Assembly: GCA_035566015.1 (NCBI GenBank)
Contig: DATMRS010000017.1
Location: 43,449-107,448, forward strand
DNA length: 64,000 nt
Source of the DNA: Sphingomonadaceae bacterium
GTDB taxonomy: Bacteria > Pseudomonadota > Alphaproteobacteria > Sphingomonadales > Sphingomonadaceae
Direction: 5' to 3'
A program made the translations under genes and the position numbers. The notes beneath the pieces are model-generated. The model searched no databases. It was given only the letters and a program-made list of their open reading frames with translations, and had not been told where the DNA came from. Shown here piece after piece: positions 47,726-63,850 of this stretch (the first letter of the stretch is position 1; each line of letters opens with the position of its first letter).

Positions 47726-47737
47726 GCTGCCGGTCAG

Positions 47738-48262: not shown

Positions 48263-48344
48263 GAGCGGCGCTCTCCCCGGCGACTTTGCGACTCTGCTCT
48301 TAGTGAGAGAAGCGGACTGCGCCAACGGCAGCAATGGGGGCGTT

Positions 48345-48434
48345 TGGCGGATGGGGTGGGATTCGAACCCACGGTGAGCGTGAACCCACGGCGGTTTTCA
48401 AGACCGCTGCCTTAAACCACTCGGCCACCCATCC
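48345..48434 (-). tRNA. tRNA-Ser (anticodon UGA)
   Basis: The reverse complement folds as GGATGGG/CCCATCC acceptor, GCGGT-CTTGAAA-ACCGC anticodon arm (TGA), a long variable arm, GTGGG-TTCGAAT-CCCAC T-arm, and an encoded 3' GCCA. Confidence 0.9.
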
Positions 48435-48586
48435 TGAGGCAAGCGCCTGTACCGTGTTTTTCGGCGATGCCAACGCTGTTCCTGTGATTGCCCCTGAAAA
48501 TCGGACTTTCCACTCCTATCTATCTTTTTTGTCGATGTGCCGCTAACGCAGCGCGGTTTTCGCGGACATATGGATCAAGAGGGCTG

Positions 48587-48805
48587 ATGGCCAAGGAAGA
48601 ACTGCTTGAAATGCGCGGGTCGGTTGTGGAACTCCTCCCCAACGCGATGTTCCGCGTGCGGCTGGAGAACGATCATGAGGTTCTCAGCCATACCGCCGGC
48701 AAGATGCGCAAGAATCGTATTCGCGTGCTCGTCGGCGACGAGGTGCTCGTCGAATTGACGCCTTATGATCTGACCAAGGGTCGGATCACCTACCGCTTCA
48801 AATAA
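48587..48805 (+). CDS. infA: translation initiation factor IF-1
   Basis: 72 aa from [72 protein letters not shown] (within ORF 48488..48805). Confidence 0.95.
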
Positions 48806-48818
48806 TCGGACTGCTGTC

Positions 48819-49400
48819 GTGCGGCTGGTCCTTGCCTCCGCCAGCCCGCGCCGTCGCGACCTGCTCGCGCGTCTCGGCATCGTGCCCGATGTGATCGATC
48901 CGGCCGATATCGACGAGACGCCGACCAAGGGCGAACTGCCGCTGCCTTATGCGCGGCGCATGGCCGCGGCGAAGGCGCAGGTGGTGGCCGAACGCTATCC
49001 CGGCAGCCTGGTGCTGGCCGCCGACACGGTCGTCGCCGCCGGACGGCGCATCTTGCCCAAGGCAGACACGGAGGCCGAGGCGCGCGCCTGCCTCACTTTG
49101 CTGTCAGGCCGGCGTCATCGCGTCATTTCCGCTTTGTGCCTGATCGATGGCAGCGGACATGCGCGGCATCGCGAATCGATCAGCATCGTCGCCTTCACGC
49201 GCCTGACCGATACGGATATCGCGGCCTGTCTCGCGACCGGCGACTGGCAGGGTAAGGCCGGCGGCTATGCGCTCCAGGGCCGGGCGGAAGCCTATGTACG
49301 CTTCCTCTCAGGCAGTCATTCGGGCGTGGTCGGCCTGCCGCTATTCGAAACCCGCGCCCTGCTCTCCGCCGCCGGCTATGCGCCGCAAGCGGATGGCTGA
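48819..49400 (+). CDS. maf: Maf-family nucleoside triphosphate pyrophosphatase
   Basis: 193 aa. LVLASASPRRRDLLARLGI...LAADTVV...GKAGGYALQG. Confidence 0.88.
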   Translation: MRLVLASASPRRRDLLARLGIVPDVIDPADIDETPTKGELPLPYARRMAAAKAQVVAERYPGSLVLAADTVVAAGRRILPKADTEAEARACLTLLSGRRHRVISALCLIDGSGHARHRESISIVAFTRLTDTDIAACLATGDWQGKAGGYALQGRAEAYVRFLSGSHSGVVGLPLFETRALLSAAGYAPQADG

Positions 49401-50400
49401 GTGGCTCTATGAAGCCGGCATTGGCGAGGCGCGTGCGGCACTCGTCGAAGGGGATGCGATCGTAGAGGCACGAATCGAGCGCGAGGAGGAAGGGCCACGT
49501 GTCGGCGCCGTGCTGTCGGCGCGTTTGGTGCGGACGATGCCGGAAACGAAGCGGGCGCTCGTCACGCTCGAAAGCGGCGCACCGGCCATGCTGCGCCCCG
49601 TGCCGATGCGGATCGGCGAAGGCGCCCCCCTGCGCGTGACCATCACGCGTGAGGCGATTCCGGAGGAAGGCAATCCCAAACCCGCCTTGGCGCGGCTCGC
49701 TACAGAGGAGGAGGCGCCCTCCCCCGGCCCGTCGCTGCACGACAGGATCGTCGCCACTGGCCATCTGGTTCGCCAGTTGGATGCGCATGAGAGCGACGCT
49801 CTGGAGGCGGCCGGCTGGTCCGAAGTCTTGGAAGAAGCACACGGCGGCCTTATCGTCTTCCCCGGCGGGCTGCTTCGGTTGGCGCTGACTCCGGCCATGA
49901 CCCTGTTCGATGTCGACGGCTCGCTTGCCCCCGGGGCGCTGGCGATCGCCGGGGCAGCGGCCGCGGCACGCGCGATCCGGCGGCTCGACATCGGCGGTTC
50001 GATCGGCATCGATTTGCCCAGCGCACAGGGCAAGGCCGATCGCCAGGCTGCGGCGGCGGCGGTGGACGCATGGCTGCCGCCGCCATTCGAACGTACCGCC
50101 GTCAACGGCTTCGGCTTCCTCCAGATCGTCCGCCCGCGCCCGCGCGTGTCGCTGCCCGAGCGGATTCGCGTCGATCCGGTGCTGACGGCGGCGCTTGCGC
50201 TCCTTCGGCGCGCCGAGCGCGCGGGGGGCGCCGGCCGGCGCACGATCGCAGCCGCCCCTGTCGTTATCCGTCGTCTCGCCGCCGCGCCCCAATGGCTGGA
50301 GATGCTGGGGCGCAGAACGGGCGCGGCGATCGACTTGCGAGAGCTGCCGGGCGCGCCCATATCCGGCGGCGATGTCCATGTCGAACACCCGCCGGCCTAA
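49393..50400 (+). CDS. ribonuclease E/G-family protein (short form)
   Basis: In-frame part of ORF 49267..50400 from MAEWLYEAGIGEARAALVEGDAIVEA. ...LTLFDVDG...GGSIGIDLP...NGFGFLQIVRPR. The family call is from memory of the maf-rng-yacG synteny in alphaproteobacteria. Confidence 0.6.
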   Translation: MAEWLYEAGIGEARAALVEGDAIVEARIEREEEGPRVGAVLSARLVRTMPETKRALVTLESGAPAMLRPVPMRIGEGAPLRVTITREAIPEEGNPKPALARLATEEEAPSPGPSLHDRIVATGHLVRQLDAHESDALEAAGWSEVLEEAHGGLIVFPGGLLRLALTPAMTLFDVDGSLAPGALAIAGAAAAARAIRRLDIGGSIGIDLPSAQGKADRQAAAAAVDAWLPPPFERTAVNGFGFLQIVRPRPRVSLPERIRVDPVLTAALALLRRAERAGGAGRRTIAAAPVVIRRLAAAPQWLEMLGRRTGAAIDLRELPGAPISGGDVHVEHPPA

Positions 50401-50593
50401 GCGCGCCGTCTGCCCTTATTGCGGCGACCCCGCCGTCGCCGAGCATGCGCCTTTTTGCAGCAGAGGCTGCCGCGATCGCGATCTTCTCAAATGGCTTGGC
50501 GAGGGCTATCGCCTGCCCGGCCGCCCCGCGACGAGCGACGGTGAAGAAATCGACGCCGATGGGCTGGACAGCGAGCGGGACGGCCCTCTATAG
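50372..50593 (+). CDS. yacG: DNA gyrase inhibitor YacG (zinc-binding)
   Basis: In-frame tail of ORF 50195..50593. ...CPYCGDPAVAEHAPFCSRGCRDRDLLKWLGEGYRLPG is the four-Cys YacG motif. Confidence 0.8.
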   Translation: MSMSNTRRPKRAVCPYCGDPAVAEHAPFCSRGCRDRDLLKWLGEGYRLPGRPATSDGEEIDADGLDSERDGPL

Positions 50594-50609
50594 GCCCCCC
50601 GACGCTCCG

Positions 50610-50685
50610 GCCCAGGTAGCTCAGTTGGTAGAGCACGTGACTGAAAATCACGGTGTCGGCGGTTCGATTCCGTCCCTGGGCACCA
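50610..50685 (+). tRNA. tRNA-Phe (anticodon GAA)
   Basis: GCCCAGGTAGCTCAGTTGGTAGAGCACGTGACTGAAAATCACGGTGTCGGCGGTTCGATTCCGTCCCTGGGCACCA. Near-identical architecture to E. coli tRNA-Phe. Anticodon loop CTGAAAA. Confidence 0.93.
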
Positions 50686-50786
50686 TCCTTCCGTTCAGCA
50701 GCATCCGCCACCATCCTTGAAACCCTAGGTATTCTGCGGTATTTCACCTTTGTAGCGTTCGCAGACGTTCGATTGCGTTCGCTCAC

Positions 50787-50857
50787 ATACCCCCAATCTC
50801 GGGGGTGTTTTTGGGGGTATATCGCTGGGGTATCCTTCAAACGGGCAAAATACCCCC
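50787..50857. repeat. cluster of five GGGGGT(A/G)T motifs (both orientations) between tRNA-Phe and int
   Basis: ATACCCCC 50787-50794, GGGGGTGT 50801-50808, GGGGGTAT 50813-50820, GGGGTAT 50827-50833, ATACCCCC 50850-50857. Confidence 0.8.
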
Positions 50858-50868
50858 AGCTACGGGGC

Positions 50869-52119
50869 ATGGGCATGGCGCTCACCGATATAGCTGTTCG
50901 CACCGCGAAGCCGGGCGATAAGCCTTACAAGCTGTTTGATGGCGGCGGGCTGCACGTTGCCGTCACCCCGGCCGGAGGGAAACTCTGGCGGCTCAAATAC
51001 CGCCTTGCGGGCAAGGAAAAGCTGCTCTCGCTGGGAGCCTATCCGGCAACGTCACTATCTGCCGCTCGCAAGGCCGCCGATGCCGCCCGCGTCGATATGG
51101 CGGCGGGCGTCGATCCCTCGCTGGAGAAGCGCCGCGCCAAGGCCAAGGCCATACAAGGCGCTGGCGACACGTTCGCGGCCATTGCGGCGGAATATATCGC
51201 CAAGCGCAAGCGCGACGGGGATCGGCCCTATTCGCCTGCCACGGCGGCCAAGGTCGAATGGTTAGCCGCGCAGTTGACGCCTGCCATCGGCACCATCCCC
51301 GTTGCGTCGATCGAACCGAGCGACATTCTGGCGGCCCTGCGCAAGCTGGAGCGCAAGGGAAATCTGGAAACAGCGCGGCGATGCCTGCAATTCGCTTCGC
51401 AAGTGCTGCGCTACGCCGTCGCCACCGCGCGCCTCGCCAGCGATCCCAGCCGCGACTTGAAGGGCGCTCTTACCGCGCCGCGCGTGAAGCACCATGCCGC
51501 GATCATCGAGCCGGCGAAGCTGGGCGGCTTGCTCCGCGCCATTGACGGCTATCAGGGCGACGCCGTGACGCGGCTGGCGCTCCAGCTCGCGCCCCATCTA
51601 TTCGTCCGCCCCGGCGAACTGCGGCAGGCCCGTTGGGAAGAACTGAACCTGGCGGCGGCGACTTGGATGATCCCGGCGGAGAAAATGAAGATGCGCCGCC
51701 CCCATGCCGTCCCGTTATCCCGGCAAGCGCTTGCCATTCTTGACGCTCTACGGGCGATCACGGGCGGCGAGGAAGGCTATCGCGGCTATGTGTTCCCCTC
51801 GCTGCGGACGCGCCAGCGGCCGATGAGCGAGAACACGCTCAACGCGGCGCTGCGGCGGCTCGGCTATTCCAGCGACGAAATGACAGCGCACGGCTTCCGG
51901 GCGACGGCTTCCACGCTGTTGAACGAAAGCGGCAAATGGAGCGTCGATGCGATCGAACGCGCGCTGGCGCACGGCGACAGCGACGCGGTGCGCGCCGCCT
52001 ACCATCGCGGGGCGCACTGGAAAGAGCGCGTGGCGATGGCCCAATGGTGGAGCGATTATCTCGACACCCTGCGCAAGGGCGCGGACATTGTGCCGTTTCC
52101 CGGCCGGGAGGTGGGATAG
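50869..52119 (+). CDS. int: tyrosine-type site-specific integrase, P4/CP4-57-like (DUF4102 N-domain)
   Basis: In-frame part of ORF 50653..52119 from MGMALTDIAVRTAKPGDKPYKLFDGGGLHVAVTPAGGKLWRLKYRLAGKEKLLSLGAYP. C-terminal ...HGFRATAST...ALAHGDSDAVRAAYHRG catalytic region. Confidence 0.92.
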   Translation: MGMALTDIAVRTAKPGDKPYKLFDGGGLHVAVTPAGGKLWRLKYRLAGKEKLLSLGAYPATSLSAARKAADAARVDMAAGVDPSLEKRRAKAKAIQGAGDTFAAIAAEYIAKRKRDGDRPYSPATAAKVEWLAAQLTPAIGTIPVASIEPSDILAALRKLERKGNLETARRCLQFASQVLRYAVATARLASDPSRDLKGALTAPRVKHHAAIIEPAKLGGLLRAIDGYQGDAVTRLALQLAPHLFVRPGELRQARWEELNLAAATWMIPAEKMKMRRPHAVPLSRQALAILDALRAITGGEEGYRGYVFPSLRTRQRPMSENTLNAALRRLGYSSDEMTAHGFRATASTLLNESGKWSVDAIERALAHGDSDAVRAAYHRGAHWKERVAMAQWWSDYLDTLRKGADIVPFPGREVG

Positions 52120-52483
52120 AGTTTCACCGGACTCTCGGTCCGATGGAAGCGGGCTGGCGACAGGATAGCCCCACGAGGCTGGCCCTGCCACATTCGGGGC
52201 GCTTGGTGGGCGTCCAGCCTAGGCCGCGCCACCATCGACAATCCTATTTCGGCTGATCCCTTGACCCGCTTCACCGCCACCCCTGTCAACTGCTCGACGC
52301 GCTGCTAGCGACAGCCGCCGCGCGCGGACTGGAGGCGACGAAATGACGCTCAGAACCACACCTATTCTTCTTTAATTCTCTTAATAATATCAGTATTATA
52401 TAGGCACAATCAGTACCCGTTTTTGCGTGTTTTGCAGCCTCCGAAATGATAGAAGTTTGAGCTGTTTCTCGGAGGTTAGCACG

Positions 52484-53170
52484 ATGTCTCCAATCCCGAA
52501 TCGTCGCCATTTTCTCGCTGGTGGATTCGCGGCGCTTTACGCCTGCGGCGGGTTTAGCTCGCTTCATACGGCTCTCGCCAGACCGGTGCTCTTGCGTTCC
52601 TTCGCCGGGAACCGGACCGCTTCAAGCTTCGCTTCCTGCCTATTCCGGTACGAAGATGTCATGCCCAACGCCTTGGTCAGCGCCATTGAAACCGAGCTTA
52701 GCCATATTGTTGTGCAGCACGACAGTGAGGCGGAGGAGCGCCGAAGCGCCGAATTCTTCGCCTGGCTCACGGTCCGCGTGATCGCGCCGGCTTATCTACG
52801 GCGCGCCGGGTATGACCAGTTGGCGGCAGATTGCGAAAATCAGTCCGATTTGCGGGACGAAGCGCGCCCTTCGGCTACGGCACAACACACCATCGGCAAG
52901 CAATATGCCTACTCCCTGACTCCTCGACTCGCGAGCTTCGCTTATGGCGCGAGCGCCCACGCCTCGACAGCGACGTTCTATGCCGGCCATGAGGACATCG
53001 AAACCGTTATCGAGACGGGCCATTATTGCGCCCTCGCGCTGCTCGAAGGCTTCTCTTACGAAGACGCCTCGCCGGCCGACGCGGCGCAAATCTGGGCCTT
53101 TGCCGTGCGGGCGATCAACGCGGATCTCCAATTGAGTCAGGCAGATATGCCCGGCATGGTCTACGGCTGA
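52484..53170 (+). CDS. hypothetical protein with twin-arginine (Tat)-like signal peptide
   Basis: In-frame part of ORF 52427..53170 from MSPIPNRRHFLAGGFAALYACGGFSSLHTALA. GGAGG SD 8 nt upstream. No family recognised. Preceded by a locally AT-rich promoter-like patch. Confidence 0.6.
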   Translation: MSPIPNRRHFLAGGFAALYACGGFSSLHTALARPVLLRSFAGNRTASSFASCLFRYEDVMPNALVSAIETELSHIVVQHDSEAEERRSAEFFAWLTVRVIAPAYLRRAGYDQLAADCENQSDLRDEARPSATAQHTIGKQYAYSLTPRLASFAYGASAHASTATFYAGHEDIETVIETGHYCALALLEGFSYEDASPADAAQIWAFAVRAINADLQLSQADMPGMVYG

Positions 53171-53406
53171 ACGTGCCGGCCTGATCACGTCGGGCCGAAG
53201 CTCCTACGCGATGCGCGCCGCCTACCTCCACGGGCCACATTAGAAATAGCGCATCGCGGTGGTGCGGTGACCATCCCGACATGCTGTGAACGGAGGCGAA
53301 GGTTGCGCCGCTACAGGGCGAGCCTTGGCGGCATCCCCGGCTGGCGTTAAGTCTTGGGTGAAGGCGGGGGTCATGCCCGGCTCTAACGCTTTGCTCTGGG
53401 GGGTAA

Positions 53407-56400
53407 ATGTCCACGCCACTTCGCCGATTGCTTGCCCAATATCGGGCGGCATCCCGTACCGAACGCGAGAAGGGGACGTATTTCGAGCGGTTGGCGGTGG
53501 CCTTCGTCAAGCACGATCCGGGCATGGTGCAGGAATATGAGGATGCCTGGCTGTTCTCCGATTGGGCGAAGGCGCACCGGCTGGACGGGCGGGATATTGG
53601 CATTGATGCCGTCGCTAAAATCCGGGGCGAGGATAGCTTTTGCGCGATCCAGTGCAAATTCTATGCGGAGGGGTATCGCATCCAGAAAGGCGATATCGAC
53701 AGTTTTCTTAGCTCATCACAGACCAAGCATTTTTCCCGTGGCCTGATCATCGAAACGACTGGCGCGCCGTGGAGCGTCAATGCCACAGCGTTGCTGGACG
53801 ACCTGAATGTCACCACGCTTGATCTGGAGCGGCTTGAGCAGAGCCCGATTGATTGGGAGGCTTGGTTTCAGCGCGATGAAATCAAAGTCGCCCCGCCCAA
53901 AGTGTTGCGAGAGCACCAGCGTGACGCCCTCGCAGCCGTTCGGGAGGGGCTTGCGGAGGCCGATCGCGGCAAGCTGATCATGGCGTGCGGCACGGGCAAG
54001 ACGTTCACCAGCCTGAAAATCGCCGAGGGACAGGTTGGCGCGGGCGGCACCGTGCTGGTGCTGGTGCCGTCGCTGGCGTTGATGAACCAGACGATCCGCG
54101 AATGGACAATAGACAGCACGACGCCGCTGCGTTCCTATGCGGTGTGTTCCGATGTTCAGGTGGGCCGGCGGACGCGCGACAAGGATGACGTGGCGGAGGT
54201 TGACCTCCACGACCTGGACTATCCCGCCACAACCAACGCGGCCAAGCTGGCGTCCCGGTCCTCCTATCCGGCGGGCGACCGGATGACGGTGGTGTTTTCC
54301 ACCTATCAGTCGATTCAGGTCATAGCCGACGCGCAAAAGCGGTACGGCTTTCCCGAATTTGACCTGATCATCTGCGATGAGGCGCATCGCACGACCGGCG
54401 CGACCTTGGCGGGTGAAGACGAAAGCAATTTCGTCAAAATCCATGATCAGGACTTTATCGCAGGCCGGAAGCGCCTCTACATGACCGCCACGCCGCGCGT
54501 CTTTGGCGAGGCGGCCAAGGCCAAGGCGGGCGAGGTATCGGCCGCGCTGGCGTCGATGGACGACGAAGCGCTGTATGGCAAAACGCTGTTCACCCGTGGC
54601 TTTGGCTGGGCGGTGGAGCATGGCCTGCTGACCGATTACAAGGTGCTGGTGCTGGCCGTGGATGAAGCCATGGTGTCAACCGGCGTGCAGAACCGGCTGG
54701 CGGATGGCTCCAGCGAAATGAAGCTGGACGACGCGACCAAGATCATCGGGTGCTACAAGGCGCTGACCAAGAACGGCCAAAAGGGCGAGTTTGCCAACGA
54801 CGGCCAGCCGATGAAACGCGCTTTGGCGTTCTGCAAGGATATCGCGTCATCGAAGCTGATCCGGTCCGAATTTGCAGCGGTGGTCAGTGAATATCTGGCG
54901 TCCGATGAGGGCGAGGCAGCGATGGGCGACGCGGAGGCGCTGCTCTGCGAATTGCGCCATGTGGACGGCACGATGGGCGCGAAGGAACGCGGCGCGCATC
55001 TGGAATGGCTGAAGGAACAGCATGGCGAACGGATCGCGCGCATCCTAACCAACGCCCGCTGTCTGTCCGAAGGCGTGGACGTGCCCGCGCTCGACGCCAT
55101 CCTGTTCATGCACCCGCGCAAGAGCCAGATTGACGTGGTGCAGTCCGTCGGGCGGGTGATGCGTCGCGCGCCGGGCAAAACGATGGGCTATGTCATCCTG
55201 CCGATCGGCGTGCCCGCCGGGATGACCCCCGAACAGGCGCTGGCCGACAATGAGCGCTACCGCGTCATCTGGCAGATATTGAATGCGCTGCGCAGCCACG
55301 ATGAACGCTTCGATGCGATGATCAACAAAGCCGATCTTGGCGTGGACATAAGCGACCATATCGAGGTGATCGCCGTCAGCAACAAGCTACCGAGTGGCAA
55401 GACGACCACGCAGACCGGGCATATTGGCGCGGGCGGCGGTGGCGATGGCGAATCGTCTGAAGGCGACAGCACGCCCAAGGCCGCACCAGCCTTCCAGAAC
55501 GCCTTTGTGTTTGATGAATTTTCCAGGGCGATCATGGCGAAGATCGTCAAGAAATGCGGGCGGCGCGACTATTGGGAGGATTGGGCGGGCGACATTGCCA
55601 CAATCGCCCAGACCCATATCACCCGGATCAGCGCGCTGGTGCAAAAGCCGGGCACGTCCGAACGCGCGGCGTTCGAGGCTTTTCTGGCTGAAATCCGCGA
55701 TGACCTGAACGACAGCATCACCGAAGCCGACGCGATCGAAATGCTGGCGCAACATCTTATCACCCGCCCAGTGTTCGACGCGCTGTTCGAGGGGCACAGC
55801 TTCACCGGCAATAATCCGGTCTCGAAAGCCATGCAGACGGTGCTGGCGGCGCTCGACGAGCATCGGCTGGATAAGGAGGCGGACAGCCTCCAGCGCTTCT
55901 ATGACAGCGTGCAGCGGCGCGCGGCGGGCATTGATAATGCCGAGGCCAAGCAAAAGATCGTCGTCGAACTGTACGACAAGTTTTTCCGCAACGCCTTCCC
56001 CAAGATGACCGAGCGGCTGGGCATCGTTTATACACCGGTGGAGGTGGTGGACTTCATCCTCCATTCGGTGAACGAGGTGCTGCAATCCGAATTTGGACAG
56101 ACGCTGGGCAGCAAGGGCGTCCATATCCTTGATCCCTTCACCGGCACCGGCACCTTCATCACGCGGTTGCTGCAAACGGGCCTCATCAAGCCCGACGAGC
56201 TGGCCCACAAATACGCCCATGAAATCCACGCCAACGAGATCGTGCTGCTGGCCTATTACATCGCCGCGATCAATATCGAGGCGGTCTATCACGGCATCAT
56301 GGGTGGCAATTACGTGCCGTTCGAGGGCATCTGCCTGACGGACACGTTCCAGCTTTACGAGCAGGAACGCGATCTGATCGCACATCTGATGCCCGAAAAC

Positions 56401-57735
56401 AGCAACCGCCGCACCCGGCAAAAGGCGCTCGATATTCGCGTCATCATCGGCAACCCGCCGTATTCGGTGGGACAAGGCAGCGCGAACGATAATGCCGCCA
56501 ATGTCGATTATCCCCGATTGGACGGGCGAATCCGCGAAACCTATGCCAAGCGATCCAAGGCGACCAACAAGAATGCGCTCTATGACAGCTATATCCGCGC
56601 GATCCGCTGGGCCAGCGACCGGATCGGCGACGCGGGCGTGGTGGCCTATGTGTCCAACGCCGGATGGCTGGACGCCAACACCGCCGATGGCCTGCGGAAA
56701 TGTCTGGCGGATGAATTTGCCAGCATTCATGTGTTCCATTTGCGGGGCAATCAACGCACGTCGGGCGAGCGATCCCGGCGCGAAGGCGGCAAGATTTTTG
56801 GCAGCGGCAGCCGCACGCCCGTCGCCATCGCGCTGCTGGTCAAGAACCCCGCCGCCGCCGAACATGGCCAGATATATTTCCACGATATTGGCGATTATCT
56901 GACCCGCGAGGACAAGCTGGCGATCATCGCCCGGTTCAGCAGCATTGAAGGCATCGCGCGCGCGGGCGGCTGGCAGACGATCACCCCCGATGAGCATGGC
57001 GATTGGTTGGGGCAGCGTGACAAGGCGTTCGACGCCTTCCTGCCGATGGGGGACAAGGACAACAAATCGGGTGCGGTACTATTTGCGAACTATTCGAGAG
57101 GTATTGAAACTGGGCGCGATGCGTGGTGCTACAACGCTAGCCGCGAAACCGTGGCCCACAATATGCGCGCGATGATCGGCTTCTATAATGCTGAACTGGC
57201 GCGGTTCGACGCTGCCCACCCCCATGCCGACCGTAAGGCACGTGGCGACGCGGTGGACGGGTTTATCGACAATGACCCGACAAAGATCAGTTGGACTAGC
57301 AGCCTGAAAAGCGATTTGGCCAAAGGCGATGCGTTCACCTTTGAGGCATCAAACCTGACCCCCAGCCTCTATCGCCCCTTCACCCGCCAATGGCTCTACT
57401 ACACCGGCGATACCGTTCATCGTGTAGGCCAGATGCCGCGTATCTTTCCGATGGGCGAAGCTGCGACCAATCGGGTGATTATGGTGAAGGCACGTCCAGC
57501 CGAAGGCGGGCAGCTTGCCTTGATGGTGGACACCATCCCCGAACTGCAAACCGACGGCGGCACGCAATGTTTTCCTGAATACCTCTATGAGGCAGCCAAA
57601 GGTGTAGCCAGAACAGAACAGAACAGAACAGAACAGAACAGAACAATTATACCCTCCATTAACGGAGGAGCAAGAACAAAATCTGGTGATTTGCACGTCG
57701 GGCGGGGGGGCAGAAAGTCGCCTTCAGCGTATTGA
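53407..57735 (+). CDS. Type ISP-like restriction-modification enzyme: Mrr-like PD-(D/E)xK nuclease, SF2 helicase/translocase and gamma-class N6-adenine methyltransferase. Truncated before the C-terminal domain in the current frame.
   Basis: 1442-aa ORF. Nuclease: GIDAVAK...AIQCKFY. Helicase: ACGTGKT, ICDEAHRTTG, MTATPR, QSVGRVMR. MTase: DPFTGTGTF then IIGNPPYS. Then ...QCFPEYLYE, after which the frame runs through (CAGAA)7 into non-homologous sequence and stops. Confidence 0.88.
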   Translation: MSTPLRRLLAQYRAASRTEREKGTYFERLAVAFVKHDPGMVQEYEDAWLFSDWAKAHRLDGRDIGIDAVAKIRGEDSFCAIQCKFYAEGYRIQKGDIDSFLSSSQTKHFSRGLIIETTGAPWSVNATALLDDLNVTTLDLERLEQSPIDWEAWFQRDEIKVAPPKVLREHQRDALAAVREGLAEADRGKLIMACGTGKTFTSLKIAEGQVGAGGTVLVLVPSLALMNQTIREWTIDSTTPLRSYAVCSDVQVGRRTRDKDDVAEVDLHDLDYPATTNAAKLASRSSYPAGDRMTVVFSTYQSIQVIADAQKRYGFPEFDLIICDEAHRTTGATLAGEDESNFVKIHDQDFIAGRKRLYMTATPRVFGEAAKAKAGEVSAALASMDDEALYGKTLFTRGFGWAVEHGLLTDYKVLVLAVDEAMVSTGVQNRLADGSSEMKLDDATKIIGCYKALTKNGQKGEFANDGQPMKRALAFCKDIASSKLIRSEFAAVVSEYLASDEGEAAMGDAEALLCELRHVDGTMGAKERGAHLEWLKEQHGERIARILTNARCLSEGVDVPALDAILFMHPRKSQIDVVQSVGRVMRRAPGKTMGYVILPIGVPAGMTPEQALADNERYRVIWQILNALRSHDERFDAMINKADLGVDISDHIEVIAVSNKLPSGKTTTQTGHIGAGGGGDGESSEGDSTPKAAPAFQNAFVFDEFSRAIMAKIVKKCGRRDYWEDWAGDIATIAQTHITRISALVQKPGTSERAAFEAFLAEIRDDLNDSITEADAIEMLAQHLITRPVFDALFEGHSFTGNNPVSKAMQTVLAALDEHRLDKEADSLQRFYDSVQRRAAGIDNAEAKQKIVVELYDKFFRNAFPKMTERLGIVYTPVEVVDFILHSVNEVLQSEFGQTLGSKGVHILDPFTGTGTFITRLLQTGLIKPDELAHKYAHEIHANEIVLLAYYIAAINIEAVYHGIMGGNYVPFEGICLTDTFQLYEQERDLIAHLMPENSNRRTRQKALDIRVIIGNPPYSVGQGSANDNAANVDYPRLDGRIRETYAKRSKATNKNALYDSYIRAIRWASDRIGDAGVVAYVSNAGWLDANTADGLRKCLADEFASIHVFHLRGNQRTSGERSRREGGKIFGSGSRTPVAIALLVKNPAAAEHGQIYFHDIGDYLTREDKLAIIARFSSIEGIARAGGWQTITPDEHGDWLGQRDKAFDAFLPMGDKDNKSGAVLFANYSRGIETGRDAWCYNASRETVAHNMRAMIGFYNAELARFDAAHPHADRKARGDAVDGFIDNDPTKISWTSSLKSDLAKGDAFTFEASNLTPSLYRPFTRQWLYYTGDTVHRVGQMPRIFPMGEAATNRVIMVKARPAEGGQLALMVDTIPELQTDGGTQCFPEYLYEAAKGVARTEQNRTEQNRTIIPSINGGARTKSGDLHVGRGGRKSPSAY

Positions 57736-58525
57736 TGAGCAACGCCGTACCGAGCCTCCACATGGTGGATATCGAGGGCAGCCAATGCTTCCCGATGTTT
57801 CTCTACGAAACGGAGGGCGGGCAATGAGCGATACGCAAGCCAGCCTCTTCGAGCAGGATTCGCCTCAGCCCCGAATCGTGCGCCGCGACGGCATTACCGA
57901 CGAAGGGCTGGCCCATTTCCAGGCGGCCTATCCCGAAGAGGCGATCAGCAAGAAAGACCTGTTCTACTACATCTATGGCCTACTCCATTCAGAGGACTAT
58001 CGCGCTCGTTTCGCCGACAATCTCTCAAAGCAATTACCGCGCATTCCCCGCGTGAAAACCGCTGCTGATTTCCGGGCCTTTTCCAAGTCAGGGCGTGCGC
58101 TGGCGGGATTGCATGTGAACTACGAACAGGTGGAGCCTTACCCCGTTACAATCGCTGAGGGTGATTTTCGGCTGGCCAATATCCCCGACCCGGTGAAATT
58201 CTACCGCGTCGAGAAAATGAAATTTGGCGGCAAGCGTCCGAATCTCGACAAAACGACCGTCACCTACAACACCAACATCACCATGACCGGTATCCCGCTG
58301 GAAGCCTATGAGTATGTGGTGAACGGCAAGCCCGCGCTGGAATGGGTGATGGAGCGCCAGTGCGTGAAGACCGACAAGGCCAGCGGCATCGTCAACGATG
58401 CCAATCGCTATGCCAACGAAACCGTGGGCGACCCCGCCTACCCCCTACTGCTGTTCCAACGGGTGATCACGGTAAGCTTGGAAACGATGAAAATCGTGCG
58501 GGCGTTGCCGAGGCTGGAGATTTAA
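57608..58525 (+). CDS. C-terminal (Type ISP C-domain-like) segment of the R-M enzyme in the +1-shifted frame. Also translatable on its own from ATG 57824.
   Basis: This frame is open from 57608, just after a TAG at 57605-57607, through the repeat to the stop at 58525. From 57824 it reads MSDTQASLFEQ...RRDGITDEGLAHFQAAYPEE..ISKKDLFYYIYGLLHSEDYRARFADNLSKQLPRIPRVKTAADFRAF...GRALAGLHVNYE..., which is the usual continuation after the QCFP..LY.. motif. GGAGGG lies 7 nt before ATG 57824. Confidence 0.75.
   Translation, partial: PEQNRTEQNRTEQLYPPLTEEQEQNLVICTSGGGAESRLQRIDEQRRTEPPHGGYRGQPMLPDVSLRNGGRAMSDTQASLFEQDSPQPRIVRRDGITDEGLAHFQAAYPEEAISKKDLFYYIYGLLHSEDYRARFADNLSKQLPRIPRVKTAADFRAFSKSGRALAGLHVNYEQVEPYPVTIAEGDFRLANIPDPVKFYRVEKMKFGGKRPNLDKTTVTYNTNITMTGIPLEAYEYVVNGKPALEWVMERQCVKTDKASGIVNDANRYANETVGDPAYPLLLFQRVITVSLETMKIVRALPRLEI
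57609..57645 (+). repeat. perfect pentanucleotide microsatellite (CAGAA)7 plus CA inside the R-M coding sequence
   Basis: Read directly: ca gaaca x7 at 57609-57645. Translated RTEQNRTEQNRT in the upstream frame. Confidence 0.97.
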
Positions 58526-58701
58526 GGCCTGTCGCGCGCGCGACTAGCATCTTCCGCGCGATATCTCTGTTGTCCGACACGAGATCAACGGCTGGAAATG
58601 GCCGGGCTTCACCCTTTGCTATCGATGGGCGCTGGCAGAGTTCGCTAGCGTCCGCTATGTTCCGCATATGTACCAGACGTTCGCTTGGAAGGGGCGAGCC
58701 A

Positions 58702-59541
58702 ATGACAGGATATGCAGGCATGGACGATAATGGAAGCGCGGCGGCGGCTCTTGCGATCATTCGAGAATGGGAATGGGAGTACGAGGATTTTGATGGCTTC
58801 GGTACGACGCCGAAATGGCTTTCTCTGAACGAAGCGATGAACTCGCTTGCGTTCGCGGGTCATGCTGATCCGGCTCGCGCGTTCCTTAGGCTCCTGGCCG
58901 ATGGTGCGCTGGTGACGCGGGGCAAATACCAGTGGCGGGCTTTTCGAGCGGGTAACCATTTCGACGGAGAGGGAAGCGGGGGCATTCCACCGGCACGCTG
59001 GCTTGTAATCGTCGATTCCACTCCTTTTGACATGTTTGATCTGCCAAAGCTTGGGTTATCAAACATGGAGCCAGGTGATTGGGACTGGCGGAATGGTTGC
59101 TGCACCGTCGCGGCGGCCTCTGACGGCGATCCAGCCAAATGGTGGGAAACCGGATATGCCGAGGAATGGTTTTCCGCTTGGGATATCGAAGTGCATTGCC
59201 CGTCAGTCGATTTCCCGAAGAGCGATAGTGCCCCTGCTGTCGAGAATGACGCTTGCGAGCCTGCCGAACCTCTGGTGCCCATCATTGGTCATAGCAAAGG
59301 CCGTCCGCCCAAATACGATTGGGAAGGCGCGTTAGCCCATGTCACGGCTGTAGCGAACACGCCGGACGGCCTGGAAACCGGCCCTGGCGCACAGGCTGCA
59401 ATTGAGCGCTTGATGGCCGACCATTTCACGCGGACCAGCAATGATGGAAGCGGCCCTTGCGAGTCCGAAATCCGCAAGCGGGCGAGCCGTGTGATGAAGG
59501 CAATCGAGGCGTTGAAGCCGTCGCTTTCCAAGGTCGCGTAA
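58702..59541 (+). CDS. hypothetical protein (Trp/acidic-rich N-part, conserved-looking GRPPKYDW C-part)
   Basis: In-frame part of ORF 58342..59541 from MTGYAGMDDNG. GGAAGGGG SD upstream. No family recognised. Confidence 0.6.
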   Translation: MTGYAGMDDNGSAAAALAIIREWEWEYEDFDGFGTTPKWLSLNEAMNSLAFAGHADPARAFLRLLADGALVTRGKYQWRAFRAGNHFDGEGSGGIPPARWLVIVDSTPFDMFDLPKLGLSNMEPGDWDWRNGCCTVAAASDGDPAKWWETGYAEEWFSAWDIEVHCPSVDFPKSDSAPAVENDACEPAEPLVPIIGHSKGRPPKYDWEGALAHVTAVANTPDGLETGPGAQAAIERLMADHFTRTSNDGSGPCESEIRKRASRVMKAIEALKPSLSKVA

Positions 59542-59706
59542 ACGGCGCTTGGCGGGAAGGCCGATAAATCCCGCCGCGCATGATAATCAGCCTTTCCCGG
59601 CCCTTATGGGCCTTTATCGGCGGACAACCGCAGCCATCCGCCAGCATCCTTTCGCATACCGCCGAGGCATTTCGCCACGGCGCAATCGCGAAGGAAACGG
59701 CCAATC

Positions 59707-59892
59707 ATGGCAATTCAGGAACAGGGTCCGCCTCTCGCCTACAGTATTAAGGAGGCTTGTCGCGTTTCGTCATTGGGGCGCACCCGCCTTTATGCCCTTA
59801 TCAACGAGGGCCGGCTCGAAAGCCGCAAGATCGGCAAGCGCACACTGATCCCCGCCGTAAGCTTGCGCCGCCTGATCGAGGGGGAGGCGTGA
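59707..59892 (+). CDS. AlpA/MerR-type helix-turn-helix DNA-binding protein (excisionase/regulator of integrative elements)
   Basis: 61 aa. YSIKEACRVSSLGRTRLYALINEGRLESRKIGKRTLIPAVSLRRLIEG. AGGAA SD upstream. Confidence 0.8.
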   Translation: MAIQEQGPPLAYSIKEACRVSSLGRTRLYALINEGRLESRKIGKRTLIPAVSLRRLIEGEA

Positions 59893-59895
59893 GCC

Positions 59896-60078
59896 ATGGC
59901 CCAGACATACGAAGCCCCGCACATTGGCGGGGCGTCGCGGAACAACTGTGGTGGCTGCTTCCGTGCTTTTTCTACCCCGCGCGTCTTGCAGACGCAATTC
60001 CTGATCGCGGCCTGCCAGGTCCGCCCCGAACTGGCGGCGATGCTGGCTGCGTTCGTCTTCGGGGGAGGCGGGGCATGA
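59896..60078 (+). CDS. small hypothetical protein (60 aa)
   Basis: The ORF begins 4 nt after the alpA-like stop and ends in an ATGA overlap with the primase start, so it is positioned for translational coupling. No homology recognised. Confidence 0.35.
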   Translation: MAQTYEAPHIGGASRNNCGGCFRAFSTPRVLQTQFLIAACQVRPELAAMLAAFVFGGGGA

Positions 60079-60998
60079 TAGACCTTCACGCCATCCGCGC
60101 TGCCAATCCGCTGCCTTCGATTGTGGGGGCAACAGTGAAGCTCCAGCGCGCGGGCCGCGAGTATAAGGCTTGCTGCCCCTTTCATCCCGACAGGTCGCCC
60201 TCCTTCACCATCTTTGCGGATGGCGAGCGCTTCCATTGCTTCGGCTGCGGGGCATCCGGCGACGTGCTGGATTTTGTGCAGCGGGCGTATGCCGTGCGGC
60301 TACCCGAGGCGGCACGGATGCTCGGCGCGGGCGATATGCCCCGGCGGCCCATGCCTTCGAGCCCCGAGGCTTCGGACGGCGCCGACACCCGCGCGAAGCG
60401 TGCGCGCGCCCTGGCGATCTGGCACCGGGCCAAGTCGGCGGCCGGGACGCTGGCAGAGGCCTATTTGCGCTTCCGGGGCATCCTTCCCCCCTATCCGCCT
60501 GATTTGCGGTTCCTGCGCCTTCGCTGTGGCAATCTGGGGGCGTTGCCGTGCCTTGTCGCTGCGGTGCGCGACGTGGCGGGCACGGTGATCGGCATTCAGC
60601 GGATCTGGCTTGCCGGCGATGGGCAGGGAAAGGCGGCCATTACCACCCCCAAACGATCGCTGGGCCAGGTGAAGGGCGGCGCAATCCGGCTCGGCAAGCT
60701 GGACGGCACGGGCTGGCTGACCGTCTGTGAAGGCCCCGAAGATGGCCTGTCGCTGCGGAACATGCTGGGCGGCCCGGTTTGGGTGGCGGCGGGGGCGACG
60801 TTCCTGCCCGCGATGCAGTTTCCCCCCGAGGTGCGAACGATCGTGATCGGGGCGGACAACGACCCGGCCGGGTGCAGGGCGGCAGAGGATGCGGCGCAGG
60901 CCTATGCCGGGCGCGGGCTATCCGTCCGCATCATCCGGCCCCTTTCTGGCTGCAAGGACTTCAACGACGAATTGAGGGGGCGCGGCAATGGCTGCTAA
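60075..60998 (+). CDS. DNA primase: CHC2 zinc finger plus Toprim-like domain
   Basis: In-frame part of ORF 59757..60998 from MIDLHAIRAANPLPSIVG. CCPFHPDRSPSFTIFADGERFHCFGCGASGDVLDF zinc finger. ...VCEGPEDGLSL...GADNDPAG Toprim-type acidic motifs. Confidence 0.85.
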   Translation: MIDLHAIRAANPLPSIVGATVKLQRAGREYKACCPFHPDRSPSFTIFADGERFHCFGCGASGDVLDFVQRAYAVRLPEAARMLGAGDMPRRPMPSSPEASDGADTRAKRARALAIWHRAKSAAGTLAEAYLRFRGILPPYPPDLRFLRLRCGNLGALPCLVAAVRDVAGTVIGIQRIWLAGDGQGKAAITTPKRSLGQVKGGAIRLGKLDGTGWLTVCEGPEDGLSLRNMLGGPVWVAAGATFLPAMQFPPEVRTIVIGADNDPAGCRAAEDAAQAYAGRGLSVRIIRPLSGCKDFNDELRGRGNGC

Positions 60999-62520
60999 CC
61001 CGAGCATACAAGAGCGGCTGGCAGCGGCGGACCCGTTTGCCGGTTGGCCCGATCCGATTCCGCTGCGGGACGAACTACCGCCGGTGCTGGCCTTCCCACC
61101 CGATCTGTTGCCGAGCCAATTGCGCGGCTGGGTGCTCGACATTGCCGAGCGCATGAATTGCCCGGTTGATCTGGTGGCCATCCCGGCCATGGTTTCGGCC
61201 GGGGCGCTTATCGGGCGGCGCATCGGCATTCGACCCCAGCGACGCACCACATGGCTGGAAGTGGGCAATCTGTGGGGGTGCGTCGTCGCCCGGCCCGGCT
61301 GCATGAAAAGCCCGGCGGCAGCCGAAGCGCTTGCCCCGATCCGGGGACTGGAAGCCAAAGCGGCGGAATGGAACAAGGAGGCCGCCGCCCGGTTCGAGGT
61401 AGCCGAGGCCGTGCACAAGCTGGAGCGCGGCGACGCCGACAAGGCCGCGCGAAAGCGGCTGAAAGACGAGGGCGCGGACTCCGCGCGGAAGGTGCTGGCG
61501 GCGCTTGTGACGCCCGAGCCGCCATCGGAGCGGCGGTACTTCACAAGCGACGCCACGGCGGAAAAGCTGGGCGAGATATGCGCGGCCAATCCGGATGGCA
61601 TCCTGGTTCATCGCGACGAACTGGTGCCGCTCTTCACCGACCTGGACAGCCCCGAAAAGGCATCGGCGCGTGGATTCTTCCTGACCGGCTGGGGTGGGCA
61701 GGAAGGCTACACCTTCGATCGCATCATGCGCGGCACCGTGCGCGTGCCAGCGGTCAACCTGTCGGTATTCGGGACGACCCAGCCGAGCCGCATCGCCGCC
61801 TATATGCGCGACAGCATCCGGCGATTCGATGATGGCATGGTCCAGCGTTTGCAGTTGCTGGCCTGGCCGGATTTCACGGGCGAATTTCGAGAGGTGGACC
61901 GCTACCCGGACAGCGAGGCGCGGCGGCTGGCGCATGAATGCTATGCCGATCTGGCCGGTCTCAACCTGCACGAAATCGGCGCGCAACGGGATGAAGTCGA
62001 CGGTCTGGGAGCGGTGCCCTTCCTGCGCTTTGCCGATGATGCGCAGGATATTTTCACCGAATGGCGGGCAGCGCTTGAAGCGGAATTGCGAGGCCAGGAT
62101 TTGGCCCCGGCGCTGGTGGCCCATTTGTCCAAATATCGCGGGCTGATCCCCCGGCTGGCCCTAATCTGCCATCTTGCCAACAATGCCTACGGCCCGGTTT
62201 CGATTGAGGCGGTACGGCAGGCTTTGGGCTGGGCCGATTATCTCCGATCCCATGCCCGGCGCGCCTATGCCTCGACCATGATCGATAATGCCGAGGCGGC
62301 ACGGGCGATCTGGCGGCGCGTCCACAGAGGTGATCTGCCCCAGCCGTTCACCGCGCGCGACATTCGCCAAAAGGGATGGTCTGGCCTGACAGAGCAAAGC
62401 CGGATCGAGGCCGGCCTGGAAGCGCTTACCGATGCCTACCGCCTCCGGGCTGAAAAGGTCGATACCGGGGGGCGGCCGTCAACACTCTATCGCGCCAATC
62501 CCAAGGCCATGCACGCATGA
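60988..62520 (+). CDS. DUF3987 (YfjI-like) protein, putative replicative helicase partner of the primase
   Basis: 510 aa. ...WPDPIPL...P.FP.DLLP..LR.WV..IAE..., ...ERRYFTSDATAEKLGEI...GILVHRDEL..., typical of DUF3987 proteins of integrative elements. Confidence 0.75.
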   Translation: MAANPSIQERLAAADPFAGWPDPIPLRDELPPVLAFPPDLLPSQLRGWVLDIAERMNCPVDLVAIPAMVSAGALIGRRIGIRPQRRTTWLEVGNLWGCVVARPGCMKSPAAAEALAPIRGLEAKAAEWNKEAAARFEVAEAVHKLERGDADKAARKRLKDEGADSARKVLAALVTPEPPSERRYFTSDATAEKLGEICAANPDGILVHRDELVPLFTDLDSPEKASARGFFLTGWGGQEGYTFDRIMRGTVRVPAVNLSVFGTTQPSRIAAYMRDSIRRFDDGMVQRLQLLAWPDFTGEFREVDRYPDSEARRLAHECYADLAGLNLHEIGAQRDEVDGLGAVPFLRFADDAQDIFTEWRAALEAELRGQDLAPALVAHLSKYRGLIPRLALICHLANNAYGPVSIEAVRQALGWADYLRSHARRAYASTMIDNAEAARAIWRRVHRGDLPQPFTARDIRQKGWSGLTEQSRIEAGLEALTDAYRLRAEKVDTGGRPSTLYRANPKAMHA

Positions 62521-62558
62521 ACGCCCCCGACAGGAACCCCCGAAACCAACAAAAGCCC

Positions 62559-62576
62559 TTTTGGGGGTTTTGGGGG
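62559..62576 (+). repeat. tandem TTTTGGGGG x2
   Basis: cttttgggggttttgggggc read directly in the DUF3987-downstream intergenic region. Shares the G5 core with the island-end motifs. Confidence 0.7.
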
Positions 62577-62616
62577 CAACCCTCCCCGGCACTTTCCCGA
62601 AAATCGAGGTGAACCC

Positions 62617-63312
62617 ATGACGGCACGCAAGAGCAAGGCGAAGCCCCCAGTGGACAAGGCAACGCGCCCGCCAAAAACCCCAATCATTATTGAGGAAGGC
62701 GAAGAGACAGCGGACGCCATCACGCGTGCAACGATCGCCCCGGCGCTACGGCACGGACAGCTCGCCCTGGAATTGGCCAAGCCATTTTTTAGCGGGATGC
62801 CCAAGGATCAACAGCCCGCGCTGGCGCACTTCGTAAGCGAGATCGCGACGCGGGCCAGCGAAGCCGGCGGGGGCGATATGGCGCTGGCCAGCCGGCTACT
62901 CGCCGCGCAGGCCATGACGCTGGATGGCATCTTCACCGAATGCGCCCGGCGATCGGCGCTCAATATGGGCGAATATATCAACGCCTCCGAACGCTATATG
63001 CGCCTGGCCCTCAAGGCGCAGGCCAATTCCCGTGCGACGATCGAAGCGCTGGCGAAGCTGCATAGCCCGCGCGAACAGACGGTGCGGCACGTTCACGTCA
63101 ACGAAGGCGGCCAAGCCGTCATTGCCGATGAATTTCACCATCACGCGGGGGGCGCAGAAAATGCACAATCGACCGAACAACCCCATGCAACCCGAACCGG
63201 CGCGATTGGCGGCCGCCCCGCGCTGTCTGGCCCGGACCCGCTCGGGGAAGCCTTGTCGCTCCCCGGCGGTGAAGGGGCGCAAGCGGTGCCGAATGCACGG
63301 CGGCAAGGGTAG
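62617..63312 (+). CDS. hypothetical protein of the island backbone
   Basis: 231-aa ORF with GAGGTG SD. The helical part ...RLLAAQAMTLDGIFTECARRSALNMGEYINASERYMRLALKAQANSRATIEALAKLHSPREQTV is of a kind I recall next to primase/DUF3987 modules. The family name is unknown to me. Confidence 0.55.
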   Translation: MTARKSKAKPPVDKATRPPKTPIIIEEGEETADAITRATIAPALRHGQLALELAKPFFSGMPKDQQPALAHFVSEIATRASEAGGGDMALASRLLAAQAMTLDGIFTECARRSALNMGEYINASERYMRLALKAQANSRATIEALAKLHSPREQTVRHVHVNEGGQAVIADEFHHHAGGAENAQSTEQPHATRTGAIGGRPALSGPDPLGEALSLPGGEGAQAVPNARRQG

Positions 63313-63439
63313 CGGCGCGCCCAAAGCCAACCGCAACGCCTGGAAACACGGCGCGAGGGCCGCCAGCACGCGCGATACGCTCGCGTTGATCCGTGCACTT
63401 GGCGAAATGCTCGACGATAGCAGGGGAGAAGCCTGCTAG
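63161..63439 (+). CDS. small basic protein with CRxxxxxGxxCRMHGG...GAPKxNxNAxKHG motif
   Basis: In-frame part of ORF 62924..63439 from MHNRPNNPMQ. It overlaps the previous ORF by 152 nt in another frame. The motif recurs in small proteins of alphaproteobacterial mobile elements (recollection, unverified). Confidence 0.45.
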   Translation: MHNRPNNPMQPEPARLAAAPRCLARTRSGKPCRSPAVKGRKRCRMHGGKGSGAPKANRNAWKHGARAASTRDTLALIRALGEMLDDSRGEAC

Positions 63440-63677
63440 CCGATCCGTGGCCATGCACCCCTCCGGGGGGGCTTCAAAGTTCAGCGCTCGCGAAGCGGAC
63501 ACCGCAGTGAACCTGTGTTAAATCGCTAAGTCAGTTTTTGTCAGATTTTTGCACGCGCGACCCCATGAAAGGCGGACGGACGCATGGAGGCGGTATCGCG
63601 CCAGCCCCCTCGCATTGGCGCGAAAGGCGGCCTGAACCGCGCATCCATCATTCATCCCCGTTCGCCACTATCCAGCA

Positions 63678-63702
63678 TTTTTGGGGGTATTTTTGGGGGT
63701 AT
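63678..63702 (+). repeat. tandem TTTT(T)GGGGGTAT x2 at the distal end of the island
   Basis: catttttgggggtatttttgggggtattctg read directly. Same GGGGGTAT core as the int-proximal cluster. Confidence 0.85.
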
Positions 63703-63850
63703 TCTGTAAAATTGCTCTATAATAAATGGCTAGTTTCAGCTATTTTTTAGCATTAATGTGATGCCGTCCCTGTCCCCGAATAGCGACATCTTGCCAGTCG
63801 GCGCCGGTTCCTTCACTGATTGATCAACGATCATCAGGAGAAAGCCGGAC

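Follow-up and report, generated by a model that had tools for sequence, protein, structure and literature searches.

A pentanucleotide repeat upstream of a conserved three-frame cassette as a predicted slippage switch in a Type ISP restriction-modification gene of a Sphingomonadaceae bacterium

The window analysed here, a 64,000-nt stretch of contig DATMRS010000017.1 from a Sphingomonadaceae bacterium, carries a Type ISP restriction-modification gene whose reading frame breaks at a simple-sequence repeat (SSR). The large open reading frame (ORF) of this gene (positions 53407-57735, forward strand) encodes 1442 amino acids in its present state and ends in out-of-frame sequence. Pfam matches place along it, in this order, an Mrr nuclease, a superfamily 2 (SF2) ATPase, a coupler, an N6-adenine methyltransferase and the first half of the target recognition domain (TRD). 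The nuclease is N-terminal and of the Mrr family (Mrr_cat_2, residues 35-157, E=1.7e-34); the SF2 ATPase and the all-helical coupler correspond to ResIII (1e-22), Helicase_C (1e-06) and ISP_coupler (1.4e-51); and the methyltransferase is of the gamma class with an NPPY motif (N6_Mtase, 2.2e-06, above the gathering score; Eco57I, 3.7e-05, 24.3 bits, slightly under the 25.3-bit cut-off). The translation contains the motifs GTGKT and DEAH as well as DPFTGTGTF and GNPPYS, and is identical to HWW64950.1, annotated as 'type ISP restriction/modification enzyme [Sphingomonadaceae bacterium]'. The homologous protein P0003, 84% identical to the window protein, aligns end to end with LlaBIII (PDB 4XQK; over residues 15-1636, E=0) and with LlaGI (PDB 5FFJ). 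The gene body is otherwise intact, with all domains present, no other lesions and 82-85% identity to full-length homologues. In the present allele no single polypeptide holds the complete TRD (core, jaw and guide): the Type_ISP_C profile is split between the large ORF (profile positions 2-164) and an ORF starting at ATG 57824 (profile positions 158-336).

The large ORF meets the downstream frame only at a perfect period-5 array at positions 57609-57645 of the forward strand (7.4 copies, 100% match and a score of 74 in TRF, in agreement with the raw sequence). This array, (CAGAA)7 plus CA, is a candidate hypermutable tract and frame selector: a 6-unit variant exists in otherwise identical DNA, and 11 and 22 units are found at related loci. 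The SSR is perfect, lies within the ORF and has a unit whose length is not divisible by three; it is also the top-scoring tandem repeat of the whole window, the remaining ones having 2-3 copies each except for an imperfect (GCCG)5.5 at 31145-31166. A perfect pentanucleotide array of 35-37 nt is not expected to arise by chance within 64 kb. The downstream frame opens at 57608, right after a TAG at 57605-57607, and reaches its first stop at 58525. Both the coincidence of the repeat with the frame break and the extent of the downstream frame had been described in the original prediction, made from the DNA letters, and were confirmed by TRF, the raw sequence and the ORF layout.

The break lies inside the TRD, immediately ahead of the part for the conserved core helices and the guide subdomain; the latter steers the DNA without reading its sequence. 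On its 5' side is a TRD-core segment, copy 1 (NRVIMVKARPAEGGQLALMVDTIPELQTDGGTQCFPEYLYE, 57469-57591, forward strand). Judged from its translation, and with the homologous segment aligned to both LlaGI and LlaBIII, it corresponds to a beta-hairpin plus Loop VI at about residues 1342-1386 of LlaGI. In LlaGI the conserved beta-hairpin comprises residues 1347-1358 and Loop VI residues 1365-1374, of which H1368, G1372 and Q1373 read target position +3 (PMC4872093). On the 3' side of the repeat, translation in three frames revealed a cassette at 57646-57827 (forward strand). Its frame X encodes copy 2 of the TRD-core segment (NLVICTSGGG and QKVAFSVLMSNAVPSLHMVDIEGSQCFPMFLYETEGGQ, then a stop), which is broken in the window by an extra G; the frame X peptide (LYPPLTEEQEQNLVICTSGGG joined to QKVAFSVLMSNAVPSLHMVDIEGSQCFPMFLYETEGGQ and the stop) duplicates the segment that ends the large ORF (NRVIMVKARP to IPELQTDGGTQCFPEYLYE). 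The TRD segment is in this way partly duplicated, with Pfam profile positions 109-164 represented twice and residues ~1342-1386 of LlaGI aligning to the duplicated piece, and Loop VI differs between the copies (PELQTDGGTQ in copy 1, PSLHMVDIEGSQ in copy 2). Frame Y is a stop-free bridge running into the C-terminal ORF, and frame Z has early stops, the TAA at 57660 among them.

The C-terminal ORF (233 aa, 57824-58525, forward strand; Type_ISP_C, E=4e-63) encodes the second half of the TRD, that is, the conserved core helices and the guide subdomain. Its ATG at 57824 overlaps the frame X TGA (57825-57827) as ATGA and is preceded, 7 nt upstream, by a Shine-Dalgarno-like GGAGG (57812-57816, forward strand) that is conserved at loci L002, L003 and L004. 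This ORF is called as a separate gene at loci L001 and L002, and stand-alone homologues of 233-235 aa are numerous in metagenomes. A -1 programmed ribosomal frameshift from frame X into the guide frame was considered and set aside: no classical slippery heptamer was seen near the junction, and the ATGA overlap together with GGAGG is the simpler reading.

The effect of the unit number on the product was followed by in-silico editing of the window sequence. The present seven units give 1442 aa, eight units 1707 aa and five units 1702 aa, while six and nine units give 1416 and 1421 aa, respectively, with a shared stop at TAA 57660-57662 (window coordinates). All the outcomes predicted earlier for these unit numbers, including the stop of the seven-unit form at 57735, were reproduced. 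The original prediction had overlooked a G7 tract (57704-57710, forward strand), as well as the fact that the ~215 nt 3' of the repeat form a three-frame cassette with a second TRD segment. Comparison across 13 loci showed that this G7 exceeds the tract of the relatives (GGGGGCC, GGGGGAC or G6) by one base; the added base displaces the frames of the cassette, and the tract may be another site of slippage. Seven units with one G removed from G7 gave a full-length protein of 1705 aa, and eight units with G6 gave the split form, with a large ORF of 1474 aa. Six and seven units both yield truncated products because the extra G rewires the cassette frames; in the window allele the full-length form is restored by one additional unit, by the loss of two units or by the loss of one G, and the split state is lost. 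A complete TRD in one chain would be obtained with eight or five units or with G6, and is found in the homologues P0004 (Sphingomonas sp. BGYR3, 1705 aa), P0006, P0040 and P0053, which are read exactly via frame Y. Changing the unit number thus exchanges full-length and truncated products in the edited sequences, and full-length, split and truncated homologues occur naturally.

The number of units varies between identical or nearly identical sequences, as in a phase-variable locus. The locus L001, from an ENA assembly, aligned to window positions 47407-63662 with 0 mismatches and one 5-nt gap, corresponding to 6 units versus 7 in the window; the two contigs, from independent assemblies, cover the same ~110-kb region (lengths of 110253 and 110258 nt). 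Other pairs of loci differ likewise: L038 and L039, 99.6% identical, have (AGGAC)14 and 16; L040 and L041 have 12 and 6 units; and L053 and L054 have (CGGA)14 and 5. Two protein clusters built at 90% identity each contain all three states, with differing unit number: P0014 (1483 aa in frame X, 1430 aa in Z, 1705 aa in Y) and P0036 (1479 aa in X, 1421 aa in Z, 1717 aa in Y). The comparison of repeat number among relatives suggested in the original prediction therefore revealed variation, the six versus seven units in otherwise identical DNA included. An assembly or sequencing error, with a true tract of eight units or G6 and an intact gene, has in its favour that repeats and homopolymers are error-prone and that the two assemblies disagree on the unit number; we nevertheless regard it as very improbable, since the 35-37-nt tract is below short-read length, neither assembly has an in-frame unit number, G7 is identical in both, and out-of-frame states are normal in the family (about 2/3 of genomes).

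L040/L041 and L053/L054 are 99.2-99.4% identical 3' of the repeat (cassette plus guide ORF) and ~96.5% identical in the upstream gene body, which suggests that the 3' cassette may be exchanged, or conserved, as a unit apart from the variable TRD. A metagenome scan with CAGAACAGAACAGAACAATTATA for further window alleles gave a single contig (L078, Ga0116172_10034675) and was uninformative about the window locus: the gene is an unrelated MmeI-like DNA methyltransferase (NPPF and FVSTNSITQGEQV motifs). On the reverse strand of L078 (1506-1530) this gene has (CAGAA)5 in frame, and the CAATTATAT flank that comes next is shared with the window; as the gene is MmeI-like, the CAGAA unit recurs in another class of restriction-modification enzyme.

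A scan with the frame X peptide against one genome per GTDB species returned 73 loci, about 37 of which have a repeat of at least four units directly upstream of copy 2. Thirteen motif classes, by our count, occupy the site, with periods of only 4, 5, 7 and 8 (never 3, 6 or 9) and up to 57 units. The AT-rich unit in a GC-rich genome, which the original prediction had singled out, is consequently no special feature, as many different motifs take its place. The hosts belong to the Sphingomonadales, Acetobacteraceae, Rhodobacterales, Neisseria, Methylophilaceae, Cardiobacterium, Xanthomonadales and others; the environmental alphaproteobacterial setting stressed at the outset is too narrow, the cassette being present also in Neisseria, Cardiobacterium, Xanthomonas, acetic acid bacteria and other hosts. 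About 40 genomes of Alpha-, Beta- and Gammaproteobacteria share the duplication, the repeat and the frame-shifted junction, and relatives without the repeat have a fused gene with a single copy of the segment. The cassette is often located on plasmids and integrative islands: the complete plasmid pKOB1 of K. oboediens, for instance, has an (AGGAC)49 tract, and its gene, which is in the split state, is annotated as two intact genes with an ATGA overlap. A scan of viral contigs produced a single locus, L079, whose contig (18,206 nt) and range are those of L014 (Sinirhodobacter populi), so that no new locus was added; the scan gives no sign that the cassette is typically phage-borne.

The architecture was the same in 36 of the 37 classifiable SSR loci, the guide frame being X+2; the exception, L055, is a double cassette. 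Frame Y had no stop across the cassette in any of the 36 loci, and when frame X was shuffled synonymously it remained open in just 1-40% of the trials per locus. Frame Z had 1-8 stops in 35 of the 36 loci and none in L059, and in nearly all repeat loci the stop of frame X is either adjacent to the start codon of the guide ORF or overlaps with it. Frame X has a coding signature (nucleotide differences of 0.30/0.22/0.51 by codon position; amino-acid identity of 65% versus 38-39% in the other frames), comparable to that of the same segment in ordinary fused genes (0.34/0.29/0.66). Judged from these substitution patterns, copy 2 (frame X) is under purifying selection as a protein. The three states are each found in about one third of the genomes (Y in 12, Z in ~10, X in ~9).

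In L055 (5867-6260, Neisseria sp. 83E34) and L051 (~5790-6130, an Acinetobacter metagenome-assembled genome) two copy-2 cassettes with different loops stand in tandem, PDLHLIGDAQ first and PDVQMQMNGQ second, and the stop of each cassette overlaps the following ATG. With such tandem cassettes every frame 3' of the repeat would give a meaningful product, and none would be plain OFF. Many public contigs start or break exactly in the repeat (position 1 in L011, L034, L036, L044, L059, L060 and L065), and L047 has a run of N inside the tract; the frequency of the cassette is probably underestimated because short-read assemblies systematically fragment genes at the repeat. In L080 (plasmid Apa386Bp1 of A. 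pasteurianus 386B, 3409-6899) IS5 transposase genes are located directly 5' of a truncated Type ISP coding sequence, of which ~260 codons at the 3' end remain, together with an (ACAGG)19 tract, the cassette and the guide ORF, next to a reverse-transcriptase gene; the 5' bulk of the gene is apparently missing, given that the IS5 transposase genes adjoin the truncated coding sequence.

Conservation on this scale bears on whether the window gene is a decaying pseudogene or a recombination scar, in which the downstream piece would be the remnant of another Type ISP gene and the microsatellite would lie at the junction by chance. The partial duplication of the TRD segment, the disruption of copy 2 by the extra G and the truncation of both the 6- and the 7-unit alleles are compatible with such an origin, which is quite improbable all the same: about 40 genomes have retained the duplication, the repeat and the frame-shifted junction, with signatures of selection, close relatives have intact full-length and split forms, and the large ORF carries no other lesions. 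A scar, first suspected on account of QCFP..LYE occurring twice, was rejected as a general explanation in view of the architecture, frames and selection shared among these genomes. For the family as a whole, scar and pseudogene are on the sequence comparisons largely refuted; because of the extra G, the window copy could still be at an early stage of decay.

With the unit number polymorphic, the reading frame following it and the cassette conserved and under selection, we consider it likely that slippage of the tract selects a fused (Y), split (X) or truncated (Z) enzyme by means of a widespread conserved cassette. Replication slippage by plus or minus one 5-nt unit would shift translation among the three frames of the following ~215 nt. 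In frame Y the cassette would be read as an unconserved linker, fusing the nuclease-ATPase-methylase-TRD core to the core-helices/guide half in a protein of ~1705 aa. In frame X the conserved second beta-hairpin/Loop VI copy would be translated up to the TGA that overlaps the guide ATG, resulting in two polypeptides (~1475 + 233 aa), presumably made through coupled restart at the stop/ATG overlap. In frame Z a stop within a few codons would leave a truncated protein of 1416-1421 aa. In the window the additional G would have rewired these frames, such that the seven units of the window and the six units of the sister assembly are both predicted to be truncated. We infer that the truncated forms are devoid of restriction and/or methylation activity, and that switching in the window organism is fast and reversible. 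The wide conservation of the cassette makes the Type ISP class appear phase-variable even in environmental bacteria.

Of the slippage toggling put forward in the original prediction, the switch between truncated and full-length forms is well supported (a 6-unit variant, homologues in all frames, repeats in many lineages and a hypermutable Acetobacter homologue), but the two-state model needs correction, as there are three states, one of which gives two polypeptides by the stop/ATG overlap. Since frame X gives this two-polypeptide form, the output may not be a clean ON/OFF. A separate product from ATG 57824, assembling with the large protein regardless of repeat number, had been named beforehand as evidence against a switch, and the two-polypeptide form of frame X comes close to it. 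Several further points weigh against a slippage-selected switch. The C-terminal half may be supplied in trans in every state, because the 233-aa ORF comes with start signals of its own (GGAGG and ATG), and this may blunt or abolish an ON/OFF effect. The window copy could be decaying, given the truncation of both its alleles and a copy 2 interrupted by the extra G. The difference of six versus seven units is between two assemblies, possibly of one sample; the shuffling and the census of states handle related loci as independent; and the literature searched yielded neither a methylome nor a phage assay for a Type ISP gene that carries the cassette.

Carried to its end, supply in trans would make the repeat hypermutable but neutral, with the C-terminal half always made from its own ribosome-binding site and equal activity in all frames. 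GGAGG and ATG are indeed conserved before the 233-aa ORF, complete genomes annotate the split form as two intact genes (K. oboediens pKOB1 being an example), and stand-alone 233-235-aa homologues are many. Neutrality, however, leaves unexplained why the periods are always frame-shifting in 13 independent motif classes, why frame Y is free of stops, and why the frame X stop overlaps the ATG so precisely, and we think it improbable.

The nature of the duplicated piece raises a different alternative: as it is a DNA-reading loop, the switch may change target specificity. The frames would then not turn the enzyme ON or OFF but choose Loop VI of copy 1 (fused) or of copy 2 (split), changing the DNA target or the mode of action; in other words, the repeat length would determine whether the guide half is flanked by the Loop VI segment of copy 1 or of copy 2 (2a or 2b in some genomes), with an additional OFF state in most genomes. 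The purifying selection on copy 2 though it is out of frame in the fused state, the extent of the duplicated segment (LlaGI 1342-1386, including the Loop VI that reads position +3), the different Loop VI of copies 1 and 2, the double cassettes of L055 and L051 with different loops and no plain OFF frame, and the conserved stop/ATG overlap all favour it. Against it, copy 1 stays in frame upstream in the split state, and a displacement of copy 1 by copy 2 in the fold is unsupported; moreover, a specificity switch is inapplicable to the present window allele because its copy 2 is broken by the extra G. We keep this as a possible but doubtful reading. If true, one gene would serve several DNA targets or fused/split behaviours, with target diversification achieved without recombinases or extra specificity genes.

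Instability of the repeat in this gene family has a published precedent, contrary to the statement in the original prediction that no such switch had been reported. In A. pasteurianus IFO 3283 the (aggac)n repeat of AP-TR04, in APA01-18740, annotated as a 'DNA helicase', was designated hyper-mutable on the basis of PCR-directed sequencing and varied among the isolates of the strain (Azuma et al. 2009, PMC2761278). In HTR sequencing, reads with one unit more or fewer made up about 5%, and the three frames lead to C-termini of 283, 58 and 8 aa; further repeats were listed in G. xylinus pGXY010, (aggac)28, and in A. vinelandii Avin_22890, (agcc)40 (PMC2761278). The 58-aa frame of AP-TR04 equals the length of frame X in the Acetobacteraceae loci L034-L042 and L081, which have (AGGAC)n. 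AP-TR04 and the window have in common the gene family, the site, a pentanucleotide unit and three frames, and differ in that the window has a CAGAA unit, a Sphingomonadaceae host and the extra frameshift in the G tract. In the 2009 report the gene was taken as a helicase possibly adding to genome instability, and restriction-modification and phase variation were not recognised; the paper is silent on the duplicated Loop VI segment, the stop/ATG overlap, selection acting on the frames and the proteobacterial breadth (PMC2761278). The one demonstration of high-frequency, reversible switching within a clonal population concerns this homologue of A. pasteurianus, whose isolates were compared by PCR sequencing (PMC2761278). 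The unstable 'helicase' of 2009 can be reinterpreted as a Type ISP cassette.

Our literature searches found no report of a phase-variable Type ISP enzyme, the repeat of the Acetobacter 'helicase' being the sole prior art found. According to a methylome study of H. pylori, the Type ISP frameshifts that it describes do not stem from repeats, and the Type ISP cassette is unlisted in a survey of Type I repeats and in a Neisseria phasome paper.

The phase-variable restriction-modification systems known are mainly of Type I and Type III, with a few of Type IIG, from host-adapted pathogens. Mechanistically the window switch would belong with the SSR contingency loci, that is, Type III mod, hsdM, hsdS (including NgoAV) and cj0031. 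A phasevarion, in which methylation by the switching enzyme alters the expression of a set of genes, is conceivable as well. The Type III mod genes and phasevarions of Haemophilus, Neisseria and Helicobacter are alike in having a frame-switching SSR with a unit that is not a multiple of 3, but there the repeat is usually 5' and causes plain ON/OFF switching of a separate Mod subunit in host-adapted pathogens, whereas in the window a gene of 5.1 kb encodes a single chain, the repeat comes after ~4.2 kb, within the TRD, and belongs to a dedicated three-frame cassette, and many cassette hosts are environmental bacteria. The poly-G tract of NgoAV hsdS in Neisseria gonorrhoeae, like other SSR-bearing Type I hsdS/hsdM genes, is closer in that the repeat is in the specificity part and the frameshift truncates a module, the outcome in NgoAV being a change of specificity instead of a loss; that system, however, is a multi-subunit one with separate S subunits and the tract lies between two whole TRDs (PMC7383803). 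In the Type ISP cassette, by contrast, the split runs through the core of a single TRD, one short stretch is present twice, and translation of the downstream half begins at a coupled start codon. LlaGI and LlaBIII have the same domain order, and both the TRD subdomains (core, jaw and guide) and Loop VI can be located on them, but they are uninterrupted single polypeptides without repeat, duplicated segment or internal start. The poly-G Type IIG gene cj0031 of Campylobacter jejuni likewise encodes a single-chain restriction-and-modification enzyme with a hypermutable tract, but this is a homopolymer giving ON/OFF only, without a helicase motor or a multi-frame cassette.

The window system differs from the contingency loci in its enzyme class, in having the repeat within the TRD, in a three-frame cassette that carries a DNA-reading segment a second time, and in its spread in environmental bacteria and on mobile elements. 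It would provide the single-chain, motor-driven Type ISP class with a dedicated slippage cassette, in soil, water and vinegar bacteria included, of a design in which, of three overlapping frames, one is kept open, one is coding and one is closed. The presence of the cassette in environmental Alpha-, Beta- and Gammaproteobacteria implies that stochastic defence switching may not be a speciality of pathogens. The cassette also accounts for many 'frameshifted' or split Type ISP annotations and for many contig breaks at this site.

The gene is carried by a ~13-kb island, with a tRNA-Phe gene (50610-50685, forward strand; ARAGORN) as its likely integration site. Directly downstream is a tyrosine integrase gene (Arm-DNA-bind_3, Phage_int_M and Phage_integrase; 50869-52119, forward strand), identified by gene calling and Pfam on the identical locus L001 (L001 positions 3463-4713, offset to the window +47406). 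The cargo further includes an AlpA-like helix-turn-helix protein, a primase and a DUF3987 protein, and relatives share this neighbourhood. In a search for the right end of the island no direct repeat of at least 16 nt of the 3' end of tRNA-Phe was found. Short repeats of the TTTTTGGGGGTAT type are located at 50794-50820, just 3' of tRNA-Phe, and near 62.6 and 63.7 kb (62559-62576 and 63676-63703), roughly bracketing the island; these could be integrase arm-type or att-flanking sites. Finally, a 57-nt imperfect direct repeat (79% identity; 51983-52039 and 53206-53262) places the 3' end of the integrase gene a second time just upstream of the Type ISP start, flanking a 228-aa ORF, and is perhaps the scar of a cargo insertion, since L002 and the P0006 contig do not have the 228-aa ORF.

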